A stretch of 64,000 nt of DNA from Faecalibacillus sp. (GTDB lineage: Bacteria > Bacillota_I > Bacilli_A > RFN20 > CAG-826). Location: contig CAVAGP010000004.1 in NCBI GenBank assembly GCA_963588175.1, positions 9,339 through 73,338 of the forward strand, in the 5' to 3' direction. The notes under the pieces were generated by a model. The model was not told the DNA's origin. It saw only the letters and a list, made by a program, of their open reading frames with translations, and ran no database searches. Each line of letters starts with the position of its first letter. Positions within the stretch are counted from its first letter, which is position 1. A program made the position numbers and the translations under genes. Shown piece by piece: positions 1,026 through 27,900 of the stretch.

Positions 1026-2061
1026 CCCCCATAGAGAACTTACATCTGCCGCCGCCATAAAAAAAGGCGAAAGAGATGGCATAGTGGTAGAAAAATCAGT
1101 CGCTCTTAGTGAAGACTGGGTAGAACGCAATCGAAAGAATCTCGAAAGTATGGCTGATTGGTGGATTGCCTATCCAGACCTATTCCTTGATCTCATCAAA
1201 CCCGCGGATTCCGAATTCGACCTCTTTTTCTATCAGCGTATCTTTTTGCGCGCAGTCATGCGCTACAGAGAAGTATATGTTTGCGCCACTCGCGCATTCA
1301 GTAAGACCTTCATTTCTATATTGGCGGAGTTCCTGCAGTGCGTTTTCATTCCTGGGACTCGTCGCTTTATAGTGGCGCCGCACAAGAACCAGGCGGCCAG
1401 TATAGCCAAGCAAAAGATAGAGGAAATATATCAGCATTGGCCCCTATTGAAGAAAGAGGTTATCGGATGGGAGCTAAACGAGGTCCCCGGCAACTTTGGC
1501 AAAGATTATGTCTCCATCAAGTTCCGCAATGGTTCCTATTTTGACGTTGTTGGTGGCGATGGTGCTCGTGGCCTTCGTAGGCACGGCGGCCTGCTAGATG
1601 AGGTCAGAGACGCCGATGAAATACAAATTCAAGAAGTTATCATACCTCTAATGAACGTATCTCGTCGATTACCTGACGACACCGTTAATCCCAAAGAGCC
1701 CAACCAACAACAAATAATCTGTACTTCTGCGGGGGTCAAATCCTCTTATGCCTATGAACGATTAATAGACTGTTTGGAGAATTCGATCATCGATCCCCAA
1801 AGTTCTTTTGTCTTTGGATGCGACTATCGAGTGCCGGCGATGCATGGATTAATTGATGCCAACTACATAAACAAGTTAAAATCTTCCCCCTCTTACGACG
1901 AGCAAGCATTCGCGCGCGAGTATCTCGGCATTTGGGGAGGTTCAAGCGAAGACTCCTGGTATAATTTTGATAAATTATCAAGGTATAGAAGATTAAAGAA
2001 TCCAGAAATGCGCGCAAAATTTAGACTGGGGAGCAACCAATTCTACTTAATATCGGTGGAT
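1006..2061 (+). CDS. terL: terminase large subunit, exon 1 (ATPase domain)
   Basis: Walker A-like CATRAFSKT, Walker B-like GGLLDEVRD and a TSAG coupling motif are present. Conserved sequence stops at ...FYLISVD, after which the ORF runs into intron sequence (KLDVPLLSD-stop). U2061 within GGAU can pair with guide GUCC at 2071-2074. Confidence 0.8.
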
Positions 2062-3292
2062 AAACTAGATGTCCCTTTACTAAGTGATTAGTAAAGCAAA
2101 TTTTCTTAAACGCGGGAAACGCTTAAAGCTTGATATACTAAAGTAATAACGCCTCATTATTACAATGTTACGAAAGTAGAAACAAATATCAAGATGGTAT
2201 ATGGAGCAATCCTAAGTACTAAAAAGAGCCAATCCGCACCAATTAGGGAGGCACTATGAAAATAGTAACAATAGAAGAAATAACTAATAGAATAGAAGAA
2301 AAGTTCCCAAATGAACCTTTCGAAATTGTTGAATATACTAGAGTTTCTAAGTCTTTTGCTATTAGATGCTTAAAATGTGGAAATACCTATCATTATTCTT
2401 CTTTTAATAATTATTTTAATGCCAAAAGAAAAGGGATATGTCCTTGTTATAATTCAAAAAATAATATCACTAAACATAAGAATACTTTAGAACAAATTCA
2501 AAAAAGGGTTCAAAATAATCCAGAAATTGAATTTATAGAATATTGGCATAATTCTGATACTCAAAAAAATATGGTCTGTGTCAAGTGTTTAAAGTGCGAA
2601 CAAATTTATAGCAAACCTCTTAGTGAATTTTTGAAGAATGACAAATGCCCTTTTTGTATAGGACGAGAGTCATTGAATACTCAAGCAGTAAAAGCTCTAT
2701 TACCGGCTGAATATGAGCTGTTAGATGAGTATAAGTCTACCAATCAAAAAGTTCATGTTAGGCATAAATGCGGTTTTATATGGGCTGTTAAAGTTAAAAC
2801 TTTATATAACTCAGTAGGATGCCCACACTGCAATAAAAAAGAGAGCAAAGGAGAACAAAAAATCACGCAATGGCTATTAAATAATGGTTATGATTTTTAT
2901 ACTGAATACTCCTTTAAATGGCAATCTAATGTTAGGAGACGATACGATTTTTATATTCCAGATTTTAACTTAATTATTGAATATATGGGCGAACAGCACT
3001 ATCATAAAAATTCATATTTTAAACTTCCGTTAGAAGAGCAGCAAAAGATAGATAAAGAAAAAGAATTAGAAGCTGAGCAGCAACACATGAATTATTTAAT
3101 TATTGGTTATTTTGATTATTCTAATATTGATACAATCTTAACTAATTGGTTCAACGACTATCCTGAAAAGGAGTAGACTCAAGCGAGTCGAAATAGAAAA
3201 CATCTTTTTAAGATGATGATATAGTCTTATCTATGTGGAAACATATAGCCGCGAAAGCGCGTATAACTTAGCGAGTTATACGGAAAATAATG
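2062..3292 (+). mobile_element. group I intron 1 (in terL), carrying a homing-endonuclease ORF between Q and R (P6 region)
   Basis: Core elements: P-like AAACGCGGGAAAC 2108-2120, Q AATCCGCACC 2231-2240, R GTTCAACGACTA 3149-3160, S GATGATATAGTC 3215-3226. Three 3' hairpins follow, then ...AAAATAATG with a terminal G at 3292. Removal rejoins terL in frame. Confidence 0.85.
2256..3176 (+). CDS. intron-encoded putative homing endonuclease: repeated zinc ribbons plus a C-terminal Vsr/DUF559-like PD-(D/E)xK nuclease domain
   Basis: RBS GGGAGG lies upstream of ATG2256. Several CxxC...CxxC pairs are present. The C-terminus reads RRYDFYIPDFNLIIEYMGEQHY, the (Y/F)DF...IE(Y/F)xGxQH pattern of Vsr/DUF559-type nucleases. 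The ORF is very AT-rich relative to the flanks, and its 3' end overlaps the R element. Confidence 0.6.
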   Translation: MKIVTIEEITNRIEEKFPNEPFEIVEYTRVSKSFAIRCLKCGNTYHYSSFNNYFNAKRKGICPCYNSKNNITKHKNTLEQIQKRVQNNPEIEFIEYWHNSDTQKNMVCVKCLKCEQIYSKPLSEFLKNDKCPFCIGRESLNTQAVKALLPAEYELLDEYKSTNQKVHVRHKCGFIWAVKVKTLYNSVGCPHCNKKESKGEQKITQWLLNNGYDFYTEYSFKWQSNVRRRYDFYIPDFNLIIEYMGEQHYHKNSYFKLPLEEQQKIDKEKELEAEQQHMNYLIIGYFDYSNIDTILTNWFNDYPEKE

Positions 3293-4030
3293 GTTGGTAG
3301 ATTGCATGACCAGTCCGTAGCAACAATCTTTAAAGTAACAATCTCTAAAGAAGGTCGCTACGTATGCTCAGTAGTAAATATCGAGGTTCTTGGTAAAACA
3401 CCAGAGACTCGTCCCTTTAAAGTCCAAGCACTTGACATTAAAAAATTAATCGACCGCTATAATCCGCGCGAAGTCGTAATAGACTGCAATGGCTTAGGAG
3501 TTGGCTTAGCTGATGAAATGATTCAAGAGCATTGGGATGAAAAAGGAAAATACTATCCACCCTATGGATTCTTCAATAATGACGACTACAAGAAGATCCA
3601 ACCTCCGGATGCGATTTGCATCCTCTACAGCATGAAGGCGAATGGACCTCTAAAATCGAAAATAAACAGCAATGCTTATAATCGATCTACTAATGGTTCC
3701 GTTCGATTTCTAATAAAGGAGCAAGAGGCCAAAAGTGCCTTGCTCGCCACTAAAGAAGGTCAAAAAATGAAGCTACCAGACCGTGTACAGCGACTGATGC
3801 CTCATGAAATGACCACTAAACTTTTTGATGAAATGGCTAACCTACGATTAAAGAAGACGGGGACGTTAGATGTTGTTCTCGAGCCAATCAATACTCGGTA
3901 TCCAGACGATAAGTATTATTCGTATGCTTACGGACTGTATCGGATAAAGGAATTGGAGGAGGAGAATAGCAAAAAGCATCGCCGCAGAAATAACGGTCCT
4001 AGGAAGCTTATTTTCTATTCAGGAGGATAA
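3293..4030 (+). CDS. terL: terminase large subunit, exon 2 (nuclease domain)
   Basis: The join gives ...YLISVD|VGRLHDQSVATIFKV..., the typical first catalytic-Asp strand of the terminase RNase H-like nuclease. It is in frame with exon 1 (352 + 245 aa). Confidence 0.8.
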   Translation, partial: VGRLHDQSVATIFKVTISKEGRYVCSVVNIEVLGKTPETRPFKVQALDIKKLIDRYNPREVVIDCNGLGVGLADEMIQEHWDEKGKYYPPYGFFNNDDYKKIQPPDAICILYSMKANGPLKSKINSNAYNRSTNGSVRFLIKEQEAKSALLATKEGQKMKLPDRVQRLMPHEMTTKLFDEMANLRLKKTGTLDVVLEPINTRYPDDKYYSYAYGLYRIKELEEENSKKHRRRNNGPRKLIFYSGG

Positions 4031-5553
4031 TGATGGAAGAAAGCAAAGATATTGCACAAGAAAAGAAAGTAATTACAGAAGCTACTAATCCGGCCGCCGG
4101 CGGTCCTGCCACCTTCAAGAAGATGACAGACAGCATGATCGGTGTTAGCGAAACTGCATATCAGAAGTATGCGCACTATTTGCGGCGGTCTGATGTAAGA
4201 GAATATTCTAAGCAAGATGTAGCCAACATCATTAACTATGGCACAGTTGAAGCTCAAAGAAAATTATCTCAGGACTATTTCTTTAGCAATGGTTTATACA
4301 GATCTCTCGTATTATATTACGCCACCCTGCTTAAATATACCGGCATTCTAATTCCTAATCCAAAGTTAGGCCACAATCTCTCCGAAAAAAAGATTGCTAA
4401 GCGTTATTTTGAAGCAGAAGACGTTCTCAATAAAATGAATCTGCCACAGGTCTTCCCTGACATTGCAGTTAGAGTATTTAGAGATGGTGCATATTATGGT
4501 GCAATCCGCACTTTAGATAAAGATAATTTTTCCTACGTAGATTTGCCGACCAACTATTGTATTTCTCGATACAAAGATTCAAAAGGCAACTACATTGTCG
4601 AATTTAATTTGGCTTTCTTTGACCATATTAGCAATGGAGAAGAGCGCGCAAACGCTTTTCGTGGCTATCCGAAACTCTTTAAGCGTGCTTATGATAAGTG
4701 GAAAAAGAAGGACGGCGCGCAATGGATATTCCTTCCTACAGATATTGGCTTCTGTTTTAACGTTTTCGAAGACGCGAGACCTATGCTTTTGAGCGTTATC
4801 CCTACTACTATTGATTATGACGACGCAGTAGAAACAGAGCAAGAACGCGATGCAGAAGAAATAAAGAAGATTATCGTTCAGAAAGTTCCTCACATCGCCA
4901 CAACAGGTGAATTAGTATTTGAGCCGGATGAGGCAGAAGAAATGCACCGTGGCGCAGTAAAGATGATGGATGCCAATCCTAATGTTAGCGTTCTTACTAC
5001 TTATGCCGATGTAGACTCCATTGTTTCTAAAACTGCGAATGATTCGTCAACTAACATCCTTGAAGTTATGCTAGAGGCCGTTTACAGCGACAGTTCCGTA
5101 AGTGGCCAATTACTTGGCTATCAGACGGGCGCGCAGTTAGAAAAAGCGATCAACACAAATATCGCGACAGTTATGTTACTGGCGCGCAAGTTTGCGAGAT
5201 TTGCTGAAAATGTGATAAACCGCATATATAGTAGTAGCAATCTTTCTTTTAGTTATGAGATACTTCCAATCTCATACCAAAACGATGATGATTATCTTAC
5301 CAAGGCTCTTCAAATGGCGAATAGTGGCTATTCGTTCTTGCTGCCGGCAGCGGCGATGGATCTTTCTCCTCGCAACTTGCGCGACATCAAAGATCTTGAA
5401 AACACGCTTCTCGAACTAACCGATAAGTTGATTCCGCTCCAGACCTCTTATACCCAGTCGGGCGCTGAGAGCAATGGAGAAGTCGGCGCACCTAAAAAAG
5501 ATGTCGACGATAAAGCCGAAAAAACTATTCAAAATGAAGAATCGCAAGGATGA
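4030..5553 (+). CDS. portal protein (position and size based)
   Basis: A 507-aa ORF overlaps the terL stop and has an RBS (AGGAGG). This is the canonical position between terminase and scaffold/capsid. Confidence 0.6.
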   Translation: MMEESKDIAQEKKVITEATNPAAGGPATFKKMTDSMIGVSETAYQKYAHYLRRSDVREYSKQDVANIINYGTVEAQRKLSQDYFFSNGLYRSLVLYYATLLKYTGILIPNPKLGHNLSEKKIAKRYFEAEDVLNKMNLPQVFPDIAVRVFRDGAYYGAIRTLDKDNFSYVDLPTNYCISRYKDSKGNYIVEFNLAFFDHISNGEERANAFRGYPKLFKRAYDKWKKKDGAQWIFLPTDIGFCFNVFEDARPMLLSVIPTTIDYDDAVETEQERDAEEIKKIIVQKVPHIATTGELVFEPDEAEEMHRGAVKMMDANPNVSVLTTYADVDSIVSKTANDSSTNILEVMLEAVYSDSSVSGQLLGYQTGAQLEKAINTNIATVMLLARKFARFAENVINRIYSSSNLSFSYEILPISYQNDDDYLTKALQMANSGYSFLLPAAAMDLSPRNLRDIKDLENTLLELTDKLIPLQTSYTQSGAESNGEVGAPKKDVDDKAEKTIQNEESQG

Positions 5554-13762: not shown

Positions 13763-13780
13763 ACCGCAGGAGGATTAATT

Positions 13781-13789
13781 ATGAATATT
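13781..13789 (+). CDS. major tail (tube) protein, exon 1 (9 nt: ATG AAT ATT)
   Basis: An excellent RBS (GCAGGAGG) lies 7 nt upstream of ATG13781. The apparent ORF dies after 13 codons. AUAUU at 13785-13789 can pair with GGUAU at 13802-13806 (P1). The boundary could also be after U13786. Confidence 0.55.
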
Positions 13790-15017
13790 TTAAGTAGATA
13801 CGGTATAGAAATGCCGCGATAGGAAGAAATTCCTATTGATAATCTCGTGAATTGCTGGGAACTCCTAAAGCTAATCAAACTACAACATAAGAAGTAATTC
13901 TAAGTGTGATAGTTTAAAAATTGATTAGATGGTAAATAAGAGGTTTTAAAATGGACAATCAGCAGCTAAGCATCAATTCTGAAATTTATTATTGTAAACC
14001 TAAACTCGGATATGGATTTATTTATAGATACACTTCTCCTTCTGGTAAAGAGTATATAGGCCAGACATCCGGAACGCTGAAGAAAAGAGCTAAAAATCTC
14101 ATCTCTGGAGATGGATATAAGAAATGTTCTCTTTTTTGGAAGGCAATACGGAAATATGGTTTTTTAAACTTGAAAGTGGAAATACTAGAAGAGGTTCCTC
14201 TTAGTGAGTTAAATAAGAAGGAAGAGTTTTATATTCAAAAATTTGATACACTCGCCCCAAAAGGCTATAACTTAACGGGAGGAGGGGAAGGGGGAAAAAA
14301 GAAAGACGTCTATGTCTATTCTGCGCAAACAGGATGTTTTCTTGAACATTATTCTAGTTTAACAGAGGCTTCTTTGTTCACAGAAGTTCCTGTTGAAACG
14401 ATTAGCGTAATAATGAATCAGAATCATCGAAAGCAATCTCATAATCTAATATTTCTTGACAATTACTTGGAAAGTTATGATATTTCTAAATTAGCGAAAA
14501 AGAATTTTACTAGAGTTTATGTTTATGATAAGGAAGGGTTTTATCTTAATTACTATGATAAGATTACCGAAGCGGCGAAAAATTTAAAGATTAGTGACAG
14601 TTCAATTTGGAACGTTCTAACCGGAAGATCTCTCCATGCAGCTTCTTATCAGTTTAGTAGGGAAAAAGTAGATAAAATGCCACCTCTTCCTCGGAATAGC
14701 CGTTCTCCAATTTCTGTCTGTCAGATTGACCCAAAATCAGGAGAAGAGATTCAGAAGTTCCCTTCCCTCAGTGAAGCTGCGCGAGCGGTCGGAATAGTTA
14801 ATGGAAATAATATCAAAAGAGTGGCCACATCTGGAAAAGGGACAAGTGGAGGGTATTTTTGGAGAATTGATGAAAGTTCAACGACTAAGAGCGGACAAAA
14901 CCCCAGTCCGACTGTGCGAGACTCCCATTAAGGGATGAAGATATAGTCTAATCTTATGTGAAAATATAAGCAGCGCCTAAAAAGCGCGGGCAATTTGGGA
15001 AATTGCCGAATATAATG
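13790..15017 (+). mobile_element. group I intron 2 (tail-tube gene) with a GIY-YIG homing-endonuclease ORF in the P6 region
   Basis: Core elements: P GAATTGCTGGGAACTCC 13849-13865, Q AATCAGCAGC 13957-13966, R GTTCAACGACTAAG 14876-14889, S GATGAAGATATAGTC 14934-14948. Three hairpins follow, then ...AATATAATG ending at G15017. Confidence 0.85.
13951..14931 (+). CDS. GIY-YIG homing endonuclease (I-TevI-like), intron-encoded
   Basis: The N-terminus GYGFIYRYTSPSGKEYIGQT...R...H... plus YNLTGGGEG is the GIY-YIG module. Repeated C-terminal helix-turn-helix-like modules (SLTEA..., ITEAAKNLKISDSSIWNVL, SLSEAARAVGI...) are present. The start overlaps Q and the 3' end overlaps R. Confidence 0.85.
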   Translation: MDNQQLSINSEIYYCKPKLGYGFIYRYTSPSGKEYIGQTSGTLKKRAKNLISGDGYKKCSLFWKAIRKYGFLNLKVEILEEVPLSELNKKEEFYIQKFDTLAPKGYNLTGGGEGGKKKDVYVYSAQTGCFLEHYSSLTEASLFTEVPVETISVIMNQNHRKQSHNLIFLDNYLESYDISKLAKKNFTRVYVYDKEGFYLNYYDKITEAAKNLKISDSSIWNVLTGRSLHAASYQFSREKVDKMPPLPRNSRSPISVCQIDPKSGEEIQKFPSLSEAARAVGIVNGNNIKRVATSGKGTSGGYFWRIDESSTTKSGQNPSPTVRDSH

Positions 15018-15542
15018 ATTAAAGAAGTTGCAGATGTATCCTTCTATCAGATTAACGAAGACGGGTCTATGGGCGCTCCGGTGCTTTACTTGGACTCTCT
15101 TAAAGTATCCACCATTGAACAGACGGCTGAAAATACCTCTGCAAAAGGTGGTAAAGGTAATGTTGACCTCGTTATGTGGGACTATGGTCGTGAAATTACC
15201 GTAACTCTTGAAGATGCTCTGTTCTCTGCCAAGTCTATGGCATTGATGTTTGGCTCTCTGTTCGATCAGGAAGACAAACAGGGTACAAAATCCCTTGCTT
15301 CCGCTACTTCTATTTATAGAACTGTTCCGAAGGTTGACTTTGAATCTGTTCTGGGTACCGAAGGCAAGGCTGTTGTAAATGGTTCTACATTTACTGTAAC
15401 TGATACTAAGTATTACGACGAAAACGGCGACACTGCTGAAAAGGCTTCCGCCGCTTATGCTGTAGTTGCTATGACTGTAGATGGTGTAGAAATTGCTATT
15501 TCTTCCGATACATTCCCGGGCACCTACACAATTATCGGAGAT
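15018..15542 (+). CDS. major tail (tube) protein, exon 2
   Basis: Frame continuity with exon 1 gives MNI|IKEVADVSFYQ.... No RBS precedes this segment. The exon ends at GGAGAU 15537-15542, which pairs perfectly with GUCUCC 15556-15561. The ORF tail KPRNCLLAA-stop is intron sequence. Confidence 0.7.
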
Positions 15543-16466
15543 AAACCGCGTAATTGTCTCCTCGCTGCGTGAGTAGCGATAAATAAAATTGGTGAATTGC
15601 GGGAACCCTAAACCACAAGGCATGGGAATCCGCAGCTAAAGGAGAAAAATGGTAGACGTTTATCGTTGTCCAAAGAAAGGGTATGGATATATCTATAAGT
15701 ACACGAGCCCTTCTGGAAAAAGTTATATTGGACAAACGACCACTTCCCTCGTTTTGAGGAGTGGTAAAAGAGGGAAAAAATATCTCGGATGTAAGGCATT
15801 TTATAATGCCATAAAGAAATATGGCTTTGAAAATTTTACGGTCGAAATTTTAGGCGAGTATAAAATTAACGCGTTAGATACAAAAGAAAAGTATTTCATT
15901 CATCGGTATAATACTTTGTTGCCATATGGCTACAATGTAAAGGATGGAGGACAAAATACTTCCCGATGCGCGCGACCAATTTACGCCTATAACTTAGATG
16001 GAACATTTTATAAGAAATATTTTAATCAAGCCGAGGCAAGAAAAGAATTTGGAATTGATGGGTCCGATATCAGTAAGTGCGCCGATGGAAAACTACATTT
16101 CGTTAGAGGAAAAATTTGGCGAAGAGAGTATTCGAGTAGCGTGGAACCTGTTTCTACGGGGAAGAATGGTGCAAAGCCTGTTCTTCAAATCGACCCAAAA
16201 ACAAATCAAATTTTGAACGTTTACGATTCGGCCAGTTCTGCCGCCCGCGCTTTGGGTATTTCTAGACCTACTGGAATATCGAAGTGCTGTTTGGGTAAAC
16301 AAAATATAAGTGCAGGATATAAGTGGCAATTTCTTCAAAGTTCAACGACTAAAGACCTCTAGAATCTCTGAGGGTAGTGCCAATCTCTTCCACGATATTG
16401 GAAGATGAAGAGATAGTCTAATCTTTATAGAAATATAAAGAAGTTTGAGAAACGGTAATAGAAATG
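15543..16466 (+). mobile_element. group I intron 3 (tail-tube gene) with a GIY-YIG homing-endonuclease ORF
   Basis: Core elements: P GAATTGCGGGAACCC 15594-15608, Q AATCCGCAGC 15627-15636, R GTTCAACGACTAA 16340-16352, S GATGAAGAGATAGTC 16404-16418. The intron ends ...ATAGAAATG at G16466. Confidence 0.85.
15649..16362 (+). CDS. GIY-YIG homing endonuclease, intron-encoded (paralog of 13951-14931)
   Basis: GYGYIYKYTSPSGKSYIGQT and YNVKDGGQ motifs are present, with C-terminal HTH-like modules (SASSAARALGISRPTGISKC). RBS AAAGGAG lies upstream. The 3' end overlaps R. Confidence 0.85.
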   Translation: MVDVYRCPKKGYGYIYKYTSPSGKSYIGQTTTSLVLRSGKRGKKYLGCKAFYNAIKKYGFENFTVEILGEYKINALDTKEKYFIHRYNTLLPYGYNVKDGGQNTSRCARPIYAYNLDGTFYKKYFNQAEARKEFGIDGSDISKCADGKLHFVRGKIWRREYSSSVEPVSTGKNGAKPVLQIDPKTNQILNVYDSASSAARALGISRPTGISKCCLGKQNISAGYKWQFLQSSTTKDL

Positions 16467-16503
16467 ACTTACGCAAGATCTGAAACAACTGGTAAAGATG
16501 AGT
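16467..16503 (+). CDS. major tail (tube) protein, exon 3 (37-nt micro-exon, TYARSETTGKDE + 1 nt)
   Basis: This is the only open frame between introns 3 and 4. GAGU at 16500-16503 pairs with guide AGCUC at 16515-19, with the U-G pair at the junction. Phase 1 is completed exactly by the two leading T residues of exon 4. Confidence 0.6.
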
Positions 16504-16823
16504 TAACTTGGAATAGCTCACTCGCAGCGTAAGCTGCCCGATTAAACATGATTAATTGCTGGAAACTCCTAAAGCTAATTAGACTACAACGGAGTTAATT
16601 GTAACAAACGTGAATGTTTTAAAAACTAATTAGATGTAATAATGGACAATCAGCAGCCGAGCAATTGAAAGATTGTGGGTCCAACGACTAGCGAAAGCGT
16701 AGGGACGAAGCGTCTCGAAAAATCATGCCCCCTTTTTAAGGGGTGAAGATATAGTCTAATCTCATATGAAAGTATGAGCAGTTATAAACGGCATAGAAGT
16801 AGCGCTCTATGTGAATATTAATG
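16504..16823 (+). mobile_element. group I intron 4 (tail-tube gene), ORF-less
   Basis: Core elements: P TAATTGCTGGAAACTCC 16553-16569, Q AATCAGCAGC 16648-16657, R GTCCAACGACTAG 16679-16691, S GGTGAAGATATAGTC 16742-16756. The intron ends ...ATTAATG at G16823. Only an 8-codon ORF remnant (MDNQQPSN-stop) lies where intron 2 has its GIY-YIG gene. Confidence 0.8.
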
Positions 16824-16996
16824 TTTTCCAGTTTGTTATTCCGAAGGCCAAGGTACTGTCCGAAGTTACCCTTACCATGGAAGCAGAAGGCGATCCTTCT
16901 ACTTTCTCCATGAACCTGAAGGTGCTTCGTCCGGCCGACAAGCAGATGATGAAACTTATCAAATATACTGTACCGGAAACCGCTATCGGCGGCTAA
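16824..16996 (+). CDS. major tail (tube) protein, exon 4
   Basis: The join reads ...GKDE-F-FQFVIPKAKVLSEVTLTMEAEGDPSTFSMNLKVL.... The four exons total 744 nt, giving 247 aa in one frame. A strong terminator follows. Confidence 0.7.
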
Positions 16997-17005
16997 ATAA
17001 TTTAG

Positions 17006-17037
17006 GTGGGTGGCGGCTTCGTCACCCACTTTTTATT
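17006..17037 (+). terminator. intrinsic terminator after the tail-tube gene
   Basis: A 9-bp GC-rich stem (GTGGGTGGC / GTCACCCAC) has loop GGCTTC and is followed by TTTTTATT. Confidence 0.7.
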
Positions 17038-17051
17038 AGAGGAGAATTTCT

Positions 17052-17837
17052 ATGGATTTACAAGAACTAGGACTTCGAGAACTGTACGAAGTCACGATAA
17101 AGGCTACTTATCCTATGGAGATAAATGGTCGCTCTATAGAGGAAGGAGAAACGGTAGTAGCCTTTGATAAAATTCAAATGGCAACTCTTTCTGAGGATAA
17201 AAGTATCGTTGCAGCCACCGGAGGATACGACAATAGAGGTCGTGTTTTCTGGGAATCTACCCGTGACGTACAGATTCAATTCTCTCAAGGAGTCTTCTCT
17301 AAAGCACAGTTCGCGGTGCTAAATAATGCGAAATTACTCGAAATTCCCCAACCTATGTTGATTAACAATAGAGAGATTGTTGAGAGTGATACCGAAGGTT
17401 TAGTGAAGTTTAAATATGAGCCTTCGGGAAAGTTCTTTATCTACGACGCCGAGAGCGGCTCGCGCATAGATGAATATGAACAAATAGATGAGACGACAAT
17501 AAAGGTCGAACAGCCTTATCGTGACTACCTACTTGATTATCACTTTAACTATGCCGGCGCTACTGCTCAATTACTTGTAGGAGAGCGGCTCACTCAAGGA
17601 TTCTTCCAATTAGAAGGAAAAACGCGAACAAAAGACGATATAACAGGTCAAGTGAAGACGGGTATAATTAGGGTGCCTCGCTTGAAATTAGTATCGCGTT
17701 TATCTATGCGACTGGGGGAGAATGCCAATCCACAAGTTGGGAGCTTCAATGCTTTGGCTGTGCCGACTGGCAAGAAAGGAGAAACGAAAGTTATGGAGAT
17801 TCTCTTTCTCGATAACGACATAGATAGTGATATGTAA
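17052..17837 (+). CDS. tail-tube-like protein (paralog of the split tube gene)
   Basis: This 261-aa ORF has an RBS (GAGGAG). Its segment DKIQMATLSEDKSIVAATGGYDNRGRVFWESTRDVQIQFSQGVFSKAQFAVLNNA aligns by eye with DSLKVSTIEQTAENTSAKGGKGNVDLVMWDYGREITVTLEDALFSAKSMALMFGS in the split gene. Confidence 0.5.
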   Translation: MDLQELGLRELYEVTIKATYPMEINGRSIEEGETVVAFDKIQMATLSEDKSIVAATGGYDNRGRVFWESTRDVQIQFSQGVFSKAQFAVLNNAKLLEIPQPMLINNREIVESDTEGLVKFKYEPSGKFFIYDAESGSRIDEYEQIDETTIKVEQPYRDYLLDYHFNYAGATAQLLVGERLTQGFFQLEGKTRTKDDITGQVKTGIIRVPRLKLVSRLSMRLGENANPQVGSFNALAVPTGKKGETKVMEILFLDNDIDSDM

Positions 17838-17880: not shown

Positions 17881-17900
17881 GAGAGGTGAAAAAAGGAGTA

Positions 17901-19358
17901 ATGAAACAGTCAGCCACCATCAATCTATCGGTAAAAGCAGATTTGCAAGATGCTGAAAGTCGATTTAAACAGTTGAAGACGTTGGTTAATTCTATCCAGT
18001 TGCCGAACAATAGTAAGTCTACTATGACAACAGAATTAAATAATATCTTGCGGAAGGTCGAAGAATTAAAAGAGCTATCTGCTAATCCGTTAGATGAGAA
18101 TGGATACAAGCAAGCGATAAAGCTACAACAGCAAATAGAAACCAGCATGACTAAGCTCGGCAGAAGCATAAATTCTGTCAGCAACGCATCGAAAGATAAA
18201 CTTAAAAATTTAATTCCTAAATCGAATATAGATACAGTAAAAAAATTAGATACTGTATTGAACCAGATTACGCAAGATACAAAAGATCAAAGAACAGAAG
18301 CTAACAAAGTAGCTGCGGCTCTCGAAAAACAGAAGACCGCTTATGATGAGGTTTGTGAGAAGCAGAAAAAATTAAATAATTACACTAAAGAACAAGTTGA
18401 AGATGCTAACAATGCGTCCTTACAAAGTAGTTTAAGAAGTAAACAAAGTTCGGCAAAGCGGACAAAGGATAAAGCTGAAAAAACGAGAGATACTGCTGCT
18501 GAGCGCATGAAAGAGATAGAAAAAGCAGTTGGAGGTAATAAAAACCGTTACTCTCATCGAAAAGATTATCAGACTGAAAAGGATATCCGCGATGCTGCAG
18601 CAAAGGAATATAAAGAAGCTGAAAAAATATATAATGAGACTCATGCGAAGTTAGAAGAAGGCCGAACTATAATCAAACTTCAAGATGCAACAGTTGATTT
18701 TAGTACAGTAGAACAATCTTATCAGGCCGCAGTGGATAGGATGAACTCTATTTCACAAGATTTAGACTTCACACCCTATAAAGAAGCGTTGAAAGATCTC
18801 GACGTAGATATCAATGTAGATTCGATTAATTCTGTCGAAGATCTCCAAGACGCAATAAAAAAGTTAAGCGAAGAAGATTTAGATAAAACACTCCAAGCTC
18901 TTCCTGAATTGCAGGCAGCGTTTGCCAACTGTGAGACTCCAATATCAAATACGAGCGACGAATTGAGGGAAGCCAGTCAAGTATTGGACAACTTCAATCA
19001 GAAGAATGCCGAATTAGCCAATTTGAAGAATCGGATGTTAGATTTCTTTGGCATTTCTAACTCAATTCAACTGTTTAAAACCGCCGTGCGCGACGCTTAC
19101 CAAGCAATTTCTGAACTAGATGCAGAAATGACCGAAATGGCTGTTGTTACAGATTATTCGGTTAGCGACTTGTGGGATCAGTTACCATACTACACTCAGC
19201 AAGCGAACGAACTAGGAGTGGCGACAAAAGAAGCCTATGCCGCGGCCACTCTGTACTATCAGCAAGGCTTAGACACTAACCAAGTAAACTCTTTAACGAC
19301 ATCGACCTTGAAGATGGCACGTATCGCCAGTCTCGATGCCGCGACTGCAACAGACCGT
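17901..19358 (+). CDS. tail tape measure protein, exon 1
   Basis: ATG17901 follows AAAAGGAG. The sequence is long, coiled-coil-like and K/E/Q-rich, and runs into the TP901-type TMP core (...TLKMARIASLDAATATDR). CCGU at 19355-58 pairs with GCGG at 19374-77. The ORF tail EQKSYAA-stop is intron sequence. Confidence 0.75.
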
Positions 19359-20374
19359 GAACAGAAAAGTTATGCGGCTTAACGAAGCAATTCGTTAATG
19401 AAAACCCATTAAATTGCTGGAAACTCCTTAGAGCTTTATGCACAATAGTAACATAAAAAGTTATGGATGGATGTCCTGTAAAAGACATAAAGATTGGACA
19501 ATCAGCAGCCAAGTAATCGAAAGATTAAAGGTTCAACGACCAAAAGTAAAGAGAAGTCTCTTGAAAAAGTGGGCATCTTTAAAAGATGAAGATATGGTCT
19601 GAACTTTATAGAAATATAAAGGAGTGAGTAAAATATGAATCAATCAAAAAACTATCAAAAAGCTCTTCTAATATGCGAAGAAAATAAGGAATTTTTAATT
19701 TTAGATTATATAAGAGGAAAAAGCCCCAAAGTTAAATTAAAATGTCATAAATGTGGATATGAGTTTGAAAGATATTTATGTCATTTTATTCAATATCCTC
19801 ATGTTTGTCCAAAATGCTGCCCAAAAGGAAAACGACAAACAATCTCCCTTGATCAAGCACAAAAGCGAATCGATGAAATTTATGGAGAGAATTATTTAAA
19901 AATTTTAGAATATAAGGGGAACAACACAAAAACTCAGATTCAATGTCTTCACTGCGGATTAATTTTTGAGAGTGTACCATCCTCCGTTTGGAGGGGGAGG
20001 ATCAAGGGATGTCCTTCTTGTGAAAAGACTCGGAGTTTAGGGGAAGCCAGGTTGGAGAGATTCTTCAGGGAGCATCATATACAATATCAGACTCAAAAGA
20101 GATTCTTAGACTGCAAAGATGAATTAATGTTACCCTTCGATTTTTTCTTACCTCAATACAACACCTGCGTTGAGTTTCAAGGGGAACAACATTATAATTC
20201 TAAAAGTCTTCTATATTCAGAAAAATTACTTTATCACGATTCTTTAAAGAGAGAATACTGTAACTTGAACGGTATTTCTCTTATTGAAATTCCTTATTTT
20301 GATATTAATAAGATTGAAAATTATTTTACGTTCATTCGAGAATAATTAACGACTATTCTCTAACGCCCCTGATG
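19359..20374 (+). mobile_element. group I intron 5 (tape measure) with its homing-endonuclease ORF downstream of the S element (P9 region)
   Basis: Core elements: P AAATTGCTGGAAACTCC 19411-19427, Q AATCAGCAGC 19500-19509, R GTTCAACGACC 19531-19541, S GATGAAGATATGGTC 19585-19599. The ORF follows S. The intron ends ...CCCCTGATG, with the terminal G at 20374 or alternatively 20371. Confidence 0.8.
19635..20345 (+). CDS. intron-encoded putative homing endonuclease: zinc ribbons plus a Vsr/DUF559-like PD-(D/E)xK domain (same family as 2256-3176)
   Basis: RBS AAAGGAG lies upstream. CHKCG...CPKCC and CLHCG...CPSC ribbons are present. The C-terminus reads LPFDFFLPQYNTCVEFQGEQHY. Confidence 0.6.
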   Translation: MNQSKNYQKALLICEENKEFLILDYIRGKSPKVKLKCHKCGYEFERYLCHFIQYPHVCPKCCPKGKRQTISLDQAQKRIDEIYGENYLKILEYKGNNTKTQIQCLHCGLIFESVPSSVWRGRIKGCPSCEKTRSLGEARLERFFREHHIQYQTQKRFLDCKDELMLPFDFFLPQYNTCVEFQGEQHYNSKSLLYSEKLLYHDSLKREYCNLNGISLIEIPYFDINKIENYFTFIRE

Positions 20375-20842
20375 ACAAATGCTCTTCGTGGTTTCAACAT
20401 GGAGTTGAACGAAACGAACGGGCAAAGAATTGCAGACGTTTACTCGGAATTGGCCGCCGTATCGGCCACAGACGTAGACGAATTGTCTACGGCAATGACA
20501 AAAGTTGCTTCGTTGGCAAGTAGTGCTAACATGACTTTCGAGAACACTTCGGCTTTCTTGTCGCAGATTTTGGAAGTAACCCGAGAGGCGCCTGAAACAG
20601 CAGGTACCAGTTTAAAGACAATCATCGCCAGAGCCACGGAAGTAAAAAAACTCTATTCTAAAGGTGAACTTACTGGCTCGGACGAAGAAGGCGAAGCAAT
20701 TGACGTCAACGATGTTTCTGCCGCATTGCGGTCAGCAGGCATCGACTTAAACAAGTTTTTGGTTGGCGACGTCGGCTTAGATGAAATTTTTAATGAGTTG
20801 GCATCTAAGTGGGATACATTGGACGTCGTACAGCAGAGATAT
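20375..20842 (+). CDS. tail tape measure protein, exon 2 (TP901-type core)
   Basis: The sequence TNALRGFNMELNETNGQRIADVYSELAAVSATDVDELSTAMTKVASLASSANMTFENTSAFLSQILEVTREAPETAGTSLKTIIAR is the conserved TMP core pattern. The exon ends at AGAUAU 20837-42, which pairs perfectly with GUAUCU 20852-57. Confidence 0.8.
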
Positions 20843-21983
20843 TAAATGCTAGTATCTATAACCTATCTAATTGCGGGAAAATCCTGAGAGCTTTTATTAC
20901 TAAACGGCAGCAGCAATGGTGTCGTGGCGAGAGTAATGACCTCGGCATAGTAAAAAGATAAAAGATTGGATAATCCGCAGCTAAGACACGTAATCTTTAT
21001 TATTGACAATACGTCAAAGGAGATAAATATGAAAAAACAAATACAGTTAAATGGAGAATCAACTTCTTTTTGGGTATATGATAATGGAATGCTACAGAGA
21101 GAGGATACTGGTCACTGGTATAAGCCTTTTGATAATGGAGGTTATCTCAGTTATTATTTAAAGTGGAAAGGAAAAACTTATCCTTTTAGAGTGCACAGAT
21201 TACTGGCAATATACTTTATTCCGAATCCAGACAATAAACCTTTTGTACGTCATAAAGACCATGATCACTACAACAACAACCTCAATAATTTAGAGTGGGT
21301 AACAGTGAAAGAAAATAATCAAGATCGGTTGAAGCCTGCTCATCCTCCAGTCGCCCCTAAAAATTATGATTATGCAAATGAGCACTGGAAACAATATCTC
21401 GATACAGAGTTCTATGTTAGTGACCTCGGTAGAGTAAAGAATATCAGGACGAGAAATTATTTAAGAGGTAATGTACGGGAAAATGGGTATTTAAGAGTAG
21501 GACTAAGATATAATGGGAAAATTCATTCCTTTAATGTTCACAATCTCGTATGGCAAGTTTGGAGAGGACCGCAGAAGAATGTAATAGATCATATTAATGG
21601 AGATAAGCTAGATAATCGACTTTCCAATCTCCAAGATATAACTCAATCTGAGAATCTTCAAAAGGCAAGCCGAAAGGCTATGCCAATTGGTAATAGCGTA
21701 GAGAAGAACGGCCCAATAGTTAAAGTCTATACTTCTCAGGCGGCCGCTGCTCGCGCGTACAATATTAATTCGGGCAATATTAATCATGCTCTTCATGGAG
21801 GATATCGAGCAGCAGGTTATTATTGGCGCTTTTTGACAGAAGAAGATTACGTGTAAAGTTCAACGACTATCCTATAGCAGATAATGCTAGGAGTAGAAAC
21901 AATGCGTTTCGAAATGGTAGGGCTGCTATTTAGTTAGCAGATGATATAGTCTACCTTTTAAAGAAATTTAAAAGAATTTTGTG
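20843..21983 (+). mobile_element. group I intron 6 (tape measure) with an HNH homing-endonuclease ORF in the P6 region
   Basis: Core elements: P TAATTGCGGGAAAATCC 20868-20884, Q AATCCGCAGC 20972-20981, R GTTCAACGACTAT 21858-21870, S GATGATATAGTC 21940-21951. A P9 hairpin follows, then ...TTTTGTG ending at G21983. Confidence 0.85.
21029..21856 (+). CDS. HNH homing endonuclease (NUMOD4-like N-terminus, two HNH-type modules, C-terminal HTH), intron-encoded
   Basis: ATG21029 follows AAAGGAG. Motifs: VHRLLAIYFIPNPDNKPFVRHKDHDHYNNNLNNLEWVTVKENN, a second module HNLVWQVW...IDHINGDKLDNRLSNLQDITQSEN, and C-terminal SQAAAARAYNINSGNINHAL...GYYWRF. Confidence 0.85.
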   Translation: MKKQIQLNGESTSFWVYDNGMLQREDTGHWYKPFDNGGYLSYYLKWKGKTYPFRVHRLLAIYFIPNPDNKPFVRHKDHDHYNNNLNNLEWVTVKENNQDRLKPAHPPVAPKNYDYANEHWKQYLDTEFYVSDLGRVKNIRTRNYLRGNVRENGYLRVGLRYNGKIHSFNVHNLVWQVWRGPQKNVIDHINGDKLDNRLSNLQDITQSENLQKASRKAMPIGNSVEKNGPIVKVYTSQAAAARAYNINSGNINHALHGGYRAAGYYWRFLTEEDYV

Positions 21984-24900
21984 ATAGCAACTCAGATAGC
22001 TGGCAGTAGGCAGCAATCGAGATTTATTGCTCTTATGGGCGACTACGATCGACTTCTTGAATTGGAAGCCGACGCAATGAATGCTAATGGTGCGGCTGAT
22101 GATCAGTACGCAAAAACGTTAGATTCTCTAGAAACTAAACTGAATAAATTAAAGAACGCATATAATGAATTTATTATGGGTCTTGCCAATAATAAAGCTA
22201 TTAAACTTGTAATTACTGGCTTGACTGGAATTTTAAATCTTGTTAATAAAATTACTACCCTTTTTGGATTAGTAGATTCGAGTAACATTATTTCTTTCTT
22301 GCTGAAAGCAGGAGCACTGATCGCCTCTCTGGTCGGCGCTTCAAAAGGCTTGAATAAGCTATTCAGCATTAAAAAAGCTGAAACTTTTTCAAAAGCTATT
22401 TCTGCCGCGTTAAGTGGAAAAGACGTTCGATCAGAGATGAAAGAACGAATTAGCCTTGTTGAATCGCTAAATCAGGCAGCAGACAAGTTAAACCAAAAAA
22501 CTGAAAAGTTAACTGAAATCAAGAAGAAAGGTTTAAAAGAATATAAGAAAGAACAGAAAGCTGCTCAGGCGGCTGCTCAGCAAGTGGCAGAAGACGGAAC
22601 CGAAAAAACGACGGAACTGTCGGGCGCAAGGCAGGCAGCAGAGACTCGTCAAGCGAGTGCAGAAGCTCTAAAGAATACAGAAATTGAGGGCGCAAAAGAG
22701 GCTGCCGCAATTCGTATGCAAGGAGCAAAAGCAGAAGGCGAACAAGAAAAAAGCGATGCTGGCGAAGAAGCTGCGATCGAGAGCACGAGCGCCAAAGCAG
22801 AAGGTCTTCAAGAAAAAGAAGATGCGATAGATGAAAGTGCGATCGAACTGGCAGGCGCAAAAGCAGAAGGTCTGCAAGAAAAAGAAGATGCGGCCGAAGA
22901 AGCTGCAATCGAAAACGCAGGAACTGCGGTCGAAGGCCTTCAAGAAAAGGCCGGAGGATTGACCGGTGCTTTTAAAAATCTGGGAAAGAGTGCTAGTGGA
23001 ATGGCAGAAGCCTTGGGAGTCTCCTTGGGTACTCTGGGTGCAATCGCAGGGGTAGTTGCCGGTATCGCAATTGCGGTCGGCGTTTGTGTCCATCTTTGGA
23101 ATACCTTTAATGCAGACGCCAAGTTAGATCAAGCAACAGAAGCCACAGAACGAGCAAAGACTGCCGCAGACAATGCGGCCGATGCTTACGACAATCTTCT
23201 CAGTGCGAGAGATGAATATGATGATATTGTTAGTTCTCTTGATTCTCTAACCGAAGGGACAGAAGAGTGGGAGCAGAAGATACTCGAAGCCAACACACAA
23301 ATTATTGAATTACTTAATAATTATAAGCAACTCTATCGATATATGAGCGTTGGTGATAATGGCCTTATCTCTGTCGACGAAGAAGGTTGGGAAACCGTCA
23401 TTGAAGATCAAAAAGATTTGGTAGAAAAAACTCAGGCAGCTTATCTTATTGCCAGAGGACGGGAATCTGCGGCGACTAACGACACGCTGACCGCCGCACG
23501 GAAGACTAATTCCACAGATAACCAGCAAAAATGGGAAGATAGCATAAACGACATCTTCCACAATGAAGGTTGGGTGGGTGCTGTTGGTAGTCGGGAAATC
23601 TACAGATTCTCTCAAGCGGCTGAAGACGCAATTCGACAAGGAACGGATTTTGATATTGAAGACTGGGCAGAGAAAAATGTTTCTGAGTTCTCTTATATTT
23701 CTGATCGAGGTCAAAAAGAAGTTATCGCACAATTTGCACAGCTTCAAGGAGAACTCAAATCCAATTTCATTTCTGAAACTAATTCTATCCAATCGGCTAT
23801 TCTTGCTTCTATAGATCAAGATGTTTCTAATAGTGGTTATGCAAATGCTATCTCCTCATCTCTTGTAAACTCTGCCGAATATGAGGAAATGTATCAAGAC
23901 GCATATGACGAATATCATAACCACACAAGAGAGACCCTCCTTGGAATGTACAAGGAAAAGACTGGACTACAAACTGACCAAGAAGTTGCGGACCTACTGG
24001 GAATTGACGTAGATAAGCTCGGAGATGTAACTCGAAAGGAATGGAGGGACTACCTGGCACAGTTAGACTTAGCAAGTGATCTGACTGATAAAGTTAATGA
24101 AGTCTATGATAGCGTGACAGGGAGCGATTCTGAAAAAGTTATCGAGGCCATCAAGGATAAAACCAATCTCACAGATGAAGCTTTATTAGAGAGAATTCAA
24201 AGTGTAGATAGTAACATTACTAGTCTAGAGGATGTTTCTCTCGAATATTGGGAACAACTCTGGGGCGACTTGGGCTTTGATCAAACGGTTTTGGACGAAA
24301 TGACTTCTGAGTCCGACTTATTCTTGAAGTCCATGGACCAAGAGAGTGCGCGATTAACGAAGAATGAAATAGAAGCTGTCGACAAATACACCGACGAGCA
24401 GATTGAAGCTCTCTCTGAAGCCTATGATATTTCAATAGAAGAAGTAAAATCTCGTCTAGAGAAACAGCAAAATCTTTCTACCAATTCTTTTAAAAAAGCA
24501 AATGAAACGGCATCCAATACGACCAGCTATATTGCCGCCAATTTCGAAGCGGACACTGGCAATATGTCTGCCGAAGCAGCAAAACAATTAGCTGATGATT
24601 GCGACACCATTATGGACCAAATGGGTGAAGATGCGGCCGACGCTTTCTATAAAGAAGTTATCGAAACAAGCAACCAAATAGCTGAACAATTTGGAGCAAA
24701 TTCTGAGCAGTACGAACAATTTTTGTCTACTCTGACTACGTTAGATGTCTCTAATAGTCAAGAACAACTAAAGACACTCCAGACGGGATTCCAAAATGTA
24801 TTCAATCAGGTTGCAGAGGGATTCTCCTTTGAGGATATACAAGACACCGATGAATACACTGCTCTTCTGTCGGTATTGAAGAATTTCCCTGCCACTTATA

Positions 24901-27900
24901 GTGATGCATCGAATGCGGCAGAAGAATTCAAAAATATCTTGTCGAGCGGAGACTTCGGCGTTGCTGAACAGCTCAACTATATTACTCAATTCCAAGACCA
25001 GTTATCTAATGATGTAATTGGCAACTCTCTCGACGATGCCGTAGTCGCGGCGCGTGCACTTAACAGCGAACTTCCATTTGATTTTCTCGGTGACGTTAGA
25101 CTAGAAGAAATTACCGACCAATTAGTATCTGACGTTGACACCATTGTCTCTAGAGCCGAAATGCTCCAAGAAGCTTTTGATGGCATCAATGATGATCTCA
25201 CTATCGATGCTTCGGATGTAGAAAGGTTGACTGAACTCTTTCCTGAATTAGTGGCGCAGGCTCAAGTATTAGAGGACGGCACACTACAATTGAACGAATC
25301 TATGATAGATTCGACTTTGGAAGCCTACGGAATTGAGCTCGATGCCGATGCTGAAACAAAAGATGCGCAAATAGAAAACCAAATTACCCTTCTCGAAGCG
25401 GAACAAGATGCTTTACAGAATGGATTAGACGCATTTATTGAGTCCTGTAGCACCGAAGTTGACATTGATGGAGCAGTAAAAGAAGCAGAAGCTCAATTGG
25501 CCGAAGCAGAAGAGGGTACTGAGCAAGACTTAGATAATCAGACTACTTCCAACGCAGGAGACAACTATCAAAACCTCGTAGCAGATAGCTATGCGGCCTA
25601 TGCCGCAATGGCAGCTAATGCTGCTGACTCCTCGAAGAGCACTATTAGCTCTTTGCTAGCTGTTATAAAGACTGCATTCTCTATGTGGAGAAGCATTCGA
25701 ACAGGAGAAGGTGGCGAAACTTATGATGCGTCAGCCACATTCTCTGGGCAGACCATCTCCTCTAAAGCTAAAGAAGCAGTCAATAAAGTAAATGCCGCGC
25801 GCGCCGCCAGCTCTAATCCTAAAATATCAGAGCTTAGCGCCGAACAGCAGGCGAAAATCAACAACATTGCGGGACGTTACTATGAGCAGATGGCTTCTAA
25901 AACAAAACAAATTGCAGAATTGAAGTCCGCGCAGAGCAAGCTCCGAAGTAGCGTAGACGAGTCAAGAGGAACTAAAGATGATAGTGATTCTAGTTCTTCT
26001 GGTTCTGATGAGACAGATGACGTTGAATCCTTTGAGAATGAGCTTGATAAGCTCTATAATCTAGTTGCCGACCTCGAAGAGCTTGAAAGACAGCGGAATG
26101 AGCTTGAACAAGAATATGAGCGTATTATTGACCGTGAAAATACCACGGGTGCGGCAGTCCTTAAAGTTCGTGAAAAAGAGCTTCTTAACTTAAAGAAGCA
26201 AGAGGCGTATCAAAAAGCTATACTGGCCGGTCGCGAGAAAGAGATGGAAACCTATCTCAAACAGAATAGTGACCTTGCGCAGTATGCCACCTATAACTGG
26301 GATGATATGTCTGTCGAGATTGATTATGACAAAATTAATGCCTTAGTCGAGAGCGGCGATAATGAAACATACGAAAGACTTGAGGACTATATTAGTGAGC
26401 TTGAAACTATCGAAGGTAATATTGAAGATGCACAAGACAGCATCGATGATATCGGAGATGAAATTGACGATCTCTTTGACGAGCAGAAAGAAGCCTATAT
26501 CGATCTCGAAGACAAAATTTATGATGCTATCGTACAGATGCGACAAGACGAAATTGACGCGATGTCTGACCTCAGCAATTCTATTGATGACGCGAACGAT
26601 AAACTTATTAATTCTATTCAGTCTAGCGTAGACCAACTTCGGCAAGATCGAGAGAACGAAGAAACCGAACAGGATATTGCCGATATGGAGCAACGTTTGG
26701 CCTATCTGCAAATGGACACTTCTGGCGGCAATCAGCAAGAGATTCTTTCTCTCCAAGAAGAAATCGACGACAAGCGGCAAGATTATACCGATAGTCTTAT
26801 CGACCAAAAGATAAATGAGCTTGAAGAGCAAAATGATAAAGCATCGGAAGAACGGCAAGCTCAAATTGACCTTATGCAAGCTCAACTCGACTACGATGAA
26901 AAGAATGGTGTTTTTTGGACAAAAGCTCATAAAATCATGGAAGAAGCATATGATGAAGAAGGAAAACTCCTCGAGACTTCTGAGCTCGTAGAGCTCCTTC
27001 AATCAACAGACGGTTATAAAGGATTGTCTGAAACCAGTAAAATGGAATGGATGAACGAACTGGAAGATTCCGCAGCCAAAGCATGGGCTTGGATGGAGAG
27101 CGGCACAGTTATTTCGGCAGTAGAGAAGCAAACTGCTAGTTTGACGAGCTCTTTGACTAGCTTGGGAGAGACACTTGGCGCGAAGATAGCTAGTGTAGGA
27201 TACTACATTAGCAGTTCTAACTCATCCAGTAGTTCTGGTTCTAGCTCATCTAGTGGCTCTAGCTCTGGCTCGACCGCAACCTACGGAAGTACAAAAGTTA
27301 GCTCTAACTCTTCTGGTAGCAGTAACTCCTCTGGTGGCAACAATTCTTCCAAGACAACCTCGAGCACGAGTAACTATCGATATCCAACGGGATGGAGAAA
27401 ACTACCGACAAAAAATCTATCAGGAACAGGATTAACATACGACACTGGCAGCACAAAAATAAAAGATAAAACCTTGGCCGCGTCAGGTATTATGACCAAC
27501 TCTTTTGGGAGTTCTTCTGCTAACCTTACTTATTATCGTATTTCTTCTCTAACAAAAACAGCCTCAAAAGGAGGAACTCGGAAAGTCAGTGCTACAGAAA
27601 AGGTTAAAAAATCTTACGCAACTAAAGATGGAGTAGTATACTTAAAACTTAGTGGGGGAAATTCAGACACCTGGGTCCGACAGGATAGCTTCTATAAGAA
27701 ATATAAAACCGGCGGTGTAGCCGATTTCACAGGGCTGGCCTGGTTAGACGGCACGAAGTCTAAACCTGAGATTGTTCTCAATCAGTCTGATTCTCAAAAC
27801 TTCCTTGCATTAAAGGATGTCCTCGCTGATGCGGTAAGGGGCGGCTTCGGTTCCTCTTCTAGTGCATCCGCAGAAACTTCCCAATATGCGATCGATGTAG

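Follow-up and report, generated by a model that had tools for sequence, protein, structure and literature searches.

Positions 13781 to 16996 (+ strand) of the DNA analysed here, a 64,000-nucleotide stretch of contig CAVAGP010000004.1 (hereafter the window, whose positions serve as coordinates throughout), raise the question of how a phage tail-tube protein can be made from a gene that appears to end almost as soon as it begins. The only well-placed start, ATG 13781, opens a frame that runs into a stop after 13 codons (MNILSRYGIEMPR and the stop). We consider it highly probable that the whole interval is a single SPbeta/SPR-type (YomU) tail-tube gene, in which four exons are separated by three group I introns, laid out as listed below.

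13768-13773 (+): Shine-Dalgarno sequence AGGAGG, 7 nt 5′ of ATG 13781, read from the sequence and kept in the related contigs L001 and L002
13781-13804 (+): exon 1, 24 nt, encoding MNILSRYG, placed by the intron-less alleles of L001 and L002 and by the N-termini of homologs
13805-15017 (+): intron 1, group I, 1213 nt, with terminal G15017
15018-15542 (+): exon 2, 525 nt, encoding IKEVADV...TIIGD
15543-16466 (+): intron 2, group I, 924 nt, helix P1 at 15537-42/15556-61 with the pair U15542.G15556
16467-16503 (+): exon 3 (micro-exon), 37 nt, encoding TYARSETTGKDE plus the first base of F
16504-16823 (+): intron 3, group I, 320 nt, with no open reading frame (ORF), P1 wobble U16503.G16516
16824-16996 (+): exon 4, 173 nt including the TAA stop

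Joined together, these exons give a corrected coding sequence of 24 + 525 + 37 + 173 = 759 nt, which encodes 252 aa with the N-terminus MNILSRYGIKEVADV, and the split codon GAG T^TT is restored across intron 3 (a caret marks a junction here and below). Translation over junction 2 should give FPGTYTIIGDTYAR, and over junction 3 DEFFQFVIPK. The first-pass annotation of this DNA had already proposed one tail-tube gene of four exons and three group I introns with a 37-nt micro-exon, and this outline is borne out by Rfam matches, helix checks, intron-less alleles and homolog alignment. The strong ribosome-binding site followed by a short-lived frame, the ...AATG end of all three introns and the completion of GAG T by TT were likewise confirmed, and the boundaries of exons 2, 3 and 4 proved to be exactly as it had claimed. 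What had to be corrected is exon 1, to which we return below.

The position of the first junction follows from two related metagenomic contigs, L001 and L002, whose exons are 87-97% identical to those of the window and whose comparison with it gives exact boundaries for introns 1 and 3. Intron 1 is missing from both as a precise 1213-bp unit. Their exon 1 region reads ATGAATATT(T/C)T(A/G)AG(C/T)AGATACGGT^ATTAAAGAA or, when followed further, ATGAATATT(T/C)T(A/G)AG(C/T)AGATACGGT^ATTAAAGAAGTTGCAGA, whereas in the window AGATACGGT is followed by 1213 nt and then by ATTAAAGAAGTT. Intron 1 therefore extends from 13805 to 15017 and exon 1 from 13781 to 13804, the intron-less form of the site being AGATACGGT^ATTAAAGAAG, as in L001 and L002; close relatives without intron 1 carry ...TACGGT^ATTAAAGAA. 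The same site is specified by P1 of the intron, in which CGGUAU (13801-13806) pairs with AUGCCG (13811-13816) through the wobble U13804.G13813, and the Rfam alignment contains the same P1. At the protein level, the close relatives P0002 (96% identical) and P0003 (94%) start with MNILSRYGIKEVADV, all of the uninterrupted homologs of ~65% identity and ~240 aa begin with MNIL[DS]RYGIKEVADV... or MAMDILARYGIKEVADV..., and the eight codons of exon 1 are near-invariant across the family (I3, L4, R6, Y7, G8).

The second and third junctions enclose the micro-exon. A search of ~5.8 billion proteins with the spliced protein yielded more than 6,800 homologs, and more than 100 uninterrupted ones are colinear with it across all three junctions, with the invariant blocks RYG^IKE, GD^TYAR and DEF^FQF. 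The segment ...TIIGD^TYARSETTGKDE(F)^FQFVIPK has a gap-free alignment with the invariant residues G182-D183-T184 and D194-E195-F196-F197-Q198-F199 of 30 homologs, and exon 3 matches their invariant T184..E195 block. Two of the junction peptides predicted by the first-pass annotation, ..TIIGD^TYAR.. and ..GKDE(F)^FQFVIPK, thus match invariant residues of the homologs, and the alignment with uninterrupted homologs that it had suggested bears out junctions 2 and 3. In L002, which is devoid of intron 3, exon 3 is joined directly to exon 4 (GATGAGT^TTTTCCAG). The intron-less form of the intron-2 site would be ATCGGAGAT^ACTTACGCA, and more distant uninterrupted genes read GGAGAT^ACCTATGC at this place. 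The borders of introns 1 and 3 repeat one or two bases, so the coordinates there were chosen by the rule that a U precedes the intron and a G ends it; the mature sequence is unambiguous all the same.

The intervening sequences bear the marks of group I ribozymes. The Rfam group I model RF00028 (gathering score 50 bits) matched intron 3 at 16492-16778 with 72.9 bits (E = 1.4e-16), above the gathering score, and the 3′ half of intron 2 at 16268-16440 with 50.6 bits, also above it, the 5′ half (15533-15806) scoring 37.2 bits. The matches over all three introns are far beyond chance, and split matches are expected since an ORF of 0.7-1 kb lies within a loop. A script that checked pairing base by base recovered in each intron a 6-bp P1 with a U.G pair, P2 to P5, P6/P6a, P7 (GACUA/UAGUC), P8, and P9 with extensions. 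In intron 1 the helices are P1 (13801-13806/13811-13816), P2 (13819-13836), P3 (13844-48/14916-20), P4 (13853-58/13959-64), P6a (13971-79/14864-72) and P7 (14883-87/14944-48), besides P8, P9, P9.1 and P9.2. Every intron is preceded by U and ends in ...AAUG with a terminal G. P10 comprises 7 of 8 bp in introns 2 and 3, that of intron 2 being formed by 16467-74 with 15548-55. One or two hairpins between P7 and P3′, at the position of P7.1/P7.2, are consistent with the layout of subgroup IA. In-frame stops lie 5, 9 and 9 codons past the 5′ splice sites of introns 1, 2 and 3, respectively, such an early in-frame stop being a usual trait of phage introns. An explanation by inteins was rejected, as the intervening sequences are out of frame and ribozyme-like.

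The three introns are 78-82% identical pairwise over their alignable cores (79% between the ORF-trimmed core of intron 1 and intron 3), and P2, P3, P4, P8 and P9 differ among these paralogous introns with complementarity kept. Between intron 2 and its orthologs in L001 and L002 (~90% identical), P8 has changed at four positions (from UCUUCCA/UGGAAGA to UCUCUUG/CAGGAGA) with all pairs kept, and one pair of P9 has changed from U-A to C-G, a small sample. The MAFFT alignment of the ORF-trimmed cores handled the 5′ end of intron 2 poorly and did not serve for RNAalifold or the counting of pairs; the helices were checked by script.

Several points weigh against the four-exon architecture or against parts of it. 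Both halves of intron 1 score under the Rfam gathering threshold (30.7 bits for the 3′ half, 14496-14970, and 18.1 bits for the 5′ half, 13795-14079), because a 1-kb ORF divides the model, and its P10 amounts to 3 bp only. Close relatives yielded no intron-2-less allele, and the spliced junction ATCGGAGATACTTACGCAMGWTCTGAAAC had no exact match in IMG/VR or JGI metagenome contigs, so that junction 2 rests on the P1/P10 pairing and on distant homologs. For the intron-encoded proteins described below, the Pfam GIY-YIG models stayed under threshold, the best of them (SegE_GIY-YIG) reaching 17.1 bits against a cut-off of 25 bits. As for the tube protein, an AlphaFold2 model of the homolog P0005, built from a shallow alignment of 30 sequences, had a mean predicted local distance difference test (pLDDT) score of 49 and was not used for a fold search. 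Finally, splicing is inferred here from the sequence.

Three other explanations were set against this architecture. The one that survives best, which we nonetheless regard as very unlikely, holds that intron 1 is not spliced and that the tube protein starts at ATG 15015 or TTG 15003 (MIKEVADV...), the 13-codon ORF being a leftover. An in-frame ATG is indeed present at 15015, and automatic gene callers used that start in a near-identical contig (P0001), but no Shine-Dalgarno sequence precedes it, and its G closes, as the last base, an intron whose helices are intact from P1 to P9.2. The strong Shine-Dalgarno sequence and the MNILSRYG exon are, moreover, 100% identical in the contig L003, and the N-terminal residues they specify are near-invariant throughout the family. 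We give still less credence to the gene being a decaying pseudogene broken by endonuclease insertions, with the tube supplied by a paralog at 17052-17837. A YomU_Tube-like paralog does lie directly downstream, but the four exons are intact, in frame and retain every family-invariant residue, and the ribozyme cores are intact with compensatory evolution. The paralog is not a replacement, because the same paralog stands beside uninterrupted tube genes in relatives. The proposal of the first-pass annotation that intron 1 begins at 13790, leaving ATGAATATT (9 nt, the start and two further codons) as exon 1 and a 744-nt frame for a 247-aa protein MNI-IKEVADV, is barely credible, the intron-less alleles having refuted it already: in its favour, U13789 stands before the supposed splice site and the reading frame survives, but L001 and L002 retain TTAAG(C/T)AGATACGGT between ATT and ATTAAAGAA, five near-invariant residues would be removed (homologs keep L4, R6, Y7 and G8), and the guide AUGCCG pairs with CGGUAU 13801-13806, not with AAUAUU, so that U13789 is without a guide partner. 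The pairing of a U with the internal guide sequence accordingly stands at U15542 and U16503, the true U of the first site being U13804, and the junction peptide MNIIKEVADV gives way to the MNIL[DS]RYGIKEV start of the uninterrupted homologs.

With the four-exon, three-intron gene as our reading, the consequences for annotation are immediate. In relatives, gene callers ran exon 2 through into intron 2, which gives a false end ...GDKPRNCLLAA before a stop. Their output was a product of 185-192 aa with this false C-terminus and a tail piece of 61-70 aa, and the exons of 24 and 37 nt were missed, as the first-pass annotation had foreseen. Because the callers fragment the gene, the tube protein of these uncultivated phages is truncated in, or absent from, the databases; the corrected 252-aa sequence restores it, and this is the practical value of the present annotation.

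Two of the introns carry ORFs for putative homing endonucleases:

13951-14931 (+): intron-1 homing endonuclease ORF, 326 aa, with a GIY-YIG-like domain at the N-terminus and NUMOD1 domains
15649-16362 (+): intron-2 homing endonuclease ORF, 237 aa, GIY-YIG-like domain and NUMOD1

The two products are 33% identical to each other (E = 9e-39). The intron-1 product matched the homing endonuclease families PHROG 314/7168/5123, and both matched PHROG 5123, 'homing endonuclease with GIY-YIG motif' (3e-6 and 3e-8), as well as, for the C-terminal DNA-binding modules, Pfam NUMOD1 (8.9e-14 for the intron-1 ORF and 4.7e-12 for the other), and PF22083 was over its cut-off. Both contain (F/Y)IY-x10-YIG, with the motifs FIYRYTSPSGKEYIG and YIYKYTSPSGKSYIG; in the intron-1 ORF, FIY and YIG are separated by 10 aa. 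We call them GIY-YIG-like because the curated Pfam GIY-YIG models scored below threshold. The reading frames are embedded in the ribozymes: the intron-1 ORF has its start codon in P5′/P4′ (AUGGACAAUCAGCAGC), its body in the P6a loop and its stop in the P8 loop, the intron-2 ORF has a GGAG ribosome-binding site in the P6a stem, and both translate the P7 strand GUUCAACGACUA as S-S-T-T. A stub of an intron-1-type endonuclease ORF survives in intron 3 (MDNQQPSN and a stop, 16641-16667), for which reason this intron has the look of a derivative from which the endonuclease was lost.

The introns behave as discrete units, present or absent, since related metagenomic contigs carry different subsets of them. 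All three are found in the window and in L003 (99-100% identical), introns 2 and 3 in L001, of which the contig stops inside intron 3, and intron 2 only in L002. Intron 3 of the window is 99% identical to that of L001 and the flanking exons 95-97%; the intron being more alike than its surroundings, the pattern fits a recent lateral acquisition. The divergence of intron 2 keeps pace with that of the exons. These relatives with three, at least two (L001) and one intron form a small natural series in which the gain and loss of introns can be studied and, in intron 3, the loss of an endonuclease. Apart from six, the 80 relatives in IMG/VR have a match span of just the coding length, which leaves no room for an intron of 200 nt or more. 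Five of the six with longer spans were examined and one, L070, has an intron; the sixth, L058, shows the same span, identity and E-value as L057. L009, L051, L057 and L071 had been candidates for further interrupted genes on account of their long tblastn spans, and turned out to be tandem tube paralogs with no Rfam match.

L070 (IMGVR_UViG_3300045988_177997, 3007-4588) is a ~53%-identical tube gene of an uncultivated phage with one group I intron and an HNH endonuclease. Its intron (RF00028, 36.1 bits, 3756-3949) follows ...ARGGKG at residue ~55, a conserved site unlike the three of the window. The first codons, M-D/E-N-Q-Q..., are common to the HNH ORF of L070 (at 3304-3330) and the GIY-YIG-like ORF of intron 1 in the window (at 13951-13975); endonuclease ORFs of different families share them because the start codon lies in the conserved core (P5′/J5-4/P4′/P6). 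The P7 strand is read as S-T-T in the window intron ORFs and in the L070 ORF alike. This suggests that different nuclease cassettes may have been swapped within one P6-loop reading frame.

The assignment to the tail tube rests on several comparisons. Pfam PF27173 (YomU_Tube) is recorded on 120 of the 120 homologs listed and likewise on the products that relatives have from exon 2 and from exons 3+4, and PHROG 2729 matched at 1.9e-47. The family profile matched, over its positions 32-193, the tail-tube chains 8k98_A/9jgh_A of phage SPR (E = 4.4e-5), the structure of whose tail tube protein has been solved experimentally (10.1101/2024.11.10.622895). A homolog in Bacillus phage PJN02 (37.6% identical) is annotated as tail tube protein. 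The gene also lies between YomW-like and other tail genes on one side and, downstream, the tape-measure gene, from which only a 261-aa tube-like paralog separates it. The SPR homolog has been discussed as a binding partner of the defence protein DSR2 (10.1101/2024.11.10.622895).

The surroundings of the gene deserve a brief description. Directly 3′ of it lies one further feature:

17004-17031 (+): terminator-like hairpin and T run

The paralog mentioned above (17052-17837, +) is a distant one (PHROG 2729, 1e-13; hhalign E = 2e-4 across the first 85 residues), and relatives whose tube gene is uninterrupted (L009, L051, L070) have the same tandem pair of tube gene and paralog. The tail module is SPbeta-like, to judge from the Pfam names YonB, YomW and YomU. 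A megablast search of GenBank phages with the region returned no true match, so there is no close relative among them. The portal protein is at most 30% identical to its best matches there, which are human-gut Phass-1, a human-faecal phage contig and large phages of Mammaliicoccus and Enterococcus, the remaining records being mostly Bacillus phages. IMG/VR and ENA/Logan assemblies are rich in tube homologs.

Other genes of the window appear to be interrupted in a similar manner. The tape-measure gene (17886-28022, +) is apparently split twice, into parts at 17886-~19330, 20372-20845 and 21981-28022. Its first gap contains an RF00028 match of 88.6 bits (19324-19621) and then an HNH-type endonuclease ORF (19635-20345), and its second an HNH endonuclease ORF (20966-21856) and the 3′ half of an intron (21823-21973, 30.8 bits). 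The first tape-measure ORF of L002 is 643 aa long and seems to be without the first of these introns. The large terminase gene (1006-4030, +) also looks interrupted, with a terL-like ORF (1006-2091), an HNH endonuclease ORF (2256-3176), an RF00028 match of 34.9 bits (3087-3248) and an ORF (3290-4030) which belongs to a PHROG of unknown function and is a candidate for the terminase C-terminus. On the opposite strand, nrdD for anaerobic ribonucleotide reductase (50631-53829, -) is split into an N-terminal part (53829-53164, PHROG 487 positions 4-227) and a C-terminal part (52121-50631, positions 244-714), between which lie an HNH endonuclease ORF (52982-52248) and an RF00028 match of 28.4 bits (52171-52361). 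Together, the tube, tape-measure, terL and nrdD genes would harbour about seven group I introns in 64 kb.

Mobile group I introns of subgroup IA-like layout have most probably invaded the tube gene on three occasions. Its pre-mRNA would carry the Shine-Dalgarno sequence, the AUG and eight codons on the 24-nt exon 1, and each intron would be removed by a two-step, guanosine-initiated transesterification, in which the U ending the 5′ exon forms the U.G wobble with the internal guide sequence (P1), and the terminal G together with the P10 pairing to the next exon sets the 3′ splice site. Splicing would bring 24 + 525 + 37 + 173 nt into one frame, and unspliced RNA would give only short products, as an in-frame stop follows soon after each 5′ splice site. 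The endonucleases of introns 1 and 2 presumably cut intron-less alleles in co-infecting relatives and thereby drive homing. It is attractive to speculate that initiation on exon 1, translation of the endonuclease and folding of the ribozyme are mutually exclusive, because intron 1 lies 24 nt past the AUG, which places the start and P1 of a 1.2-kb ribozyme within almost one ribosome footprint, and because the intron-1 ORF starts inside the ribozyme core (P5′/P4′), so that translating it would conflict with folding. Three splicings would then gate the most abundant tail protein, as a control of timing or dosage or as a source of alternative products like those of phage Twort. We consider such a role rather unlikely as against neutral parasitism; skipping of the 37-nt exon would shift the frame, and no new mechanism is indicated.

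Among known systems, the self-splicing introns of T4 td, nrdB and sunY and of Bacillus phages (SPO1, Bastillevirinae) are alike in having endonuclease ORFs in peripheral loops, and in interrupting essential genes at their most conserved codons, with an in-frame stop soon after the intron begins. Those introns reside mostly in DNA-metabolism and terminase genes, whereas the gene invaded here encodes a major virion structural protein; in Bastillevirinae, none were found in structural genes, and multiple introns per gene are known in phages (PMC11878797). A micro-exon of comparable length is known from Coxiella burnetii, whose 23S rRNA gene has a 34-nt exon with a group I intron on either side (as cited in PMC10136302), but this is a bacterial rRNA gene and not a protein-coding gene of a phage.

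The closest parallel is orf142 of phage Twort, which is of the same kind and already published, so that the novelty of the present locus had been overrated earlier. According to the passages of PMC11878797 and PMC10136302 that cite Landthaler & Shub (1999, PNAS 96:7005), orf142, later recognised as encoding the tail tube, is interrupted by three group I introns, the second and third of which enclose an exon of 23 nt; these two introns belong to subgroup IA2, and exon skipping was demonstrated. Our Rfam scan of the Twort genome (NC_007021) located the three introns at 16606-17506, within which the genome record annotates no ORF; two of the three tube-gene introns described here have endonuclease ORFs. 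Both systems thus combine a tail-tube gene, three group I introns, a micro-exon between introns 2 and 3 and an intron-rich phage genome. They differ in the length of the micro-exon (37 nt here and 23 nt in Twort), in the first intron, which here lies 24 nt into the coding sequence, unlike in Twort, and in the virion, as Twort is a myovirus and the protein of the window a siphovirus tail tube. Because the N-terminal portion of the Twort tube protein, a 121-aa ORF annotated for the first exon, has no detectable similarity to the protein of the window (BLASTP E = 32), the invasions were independent, the arrangement being analogous or convergent and not inherited, and the gene described here is a second, independent case of three group I introns settling in one tail-tube gene.

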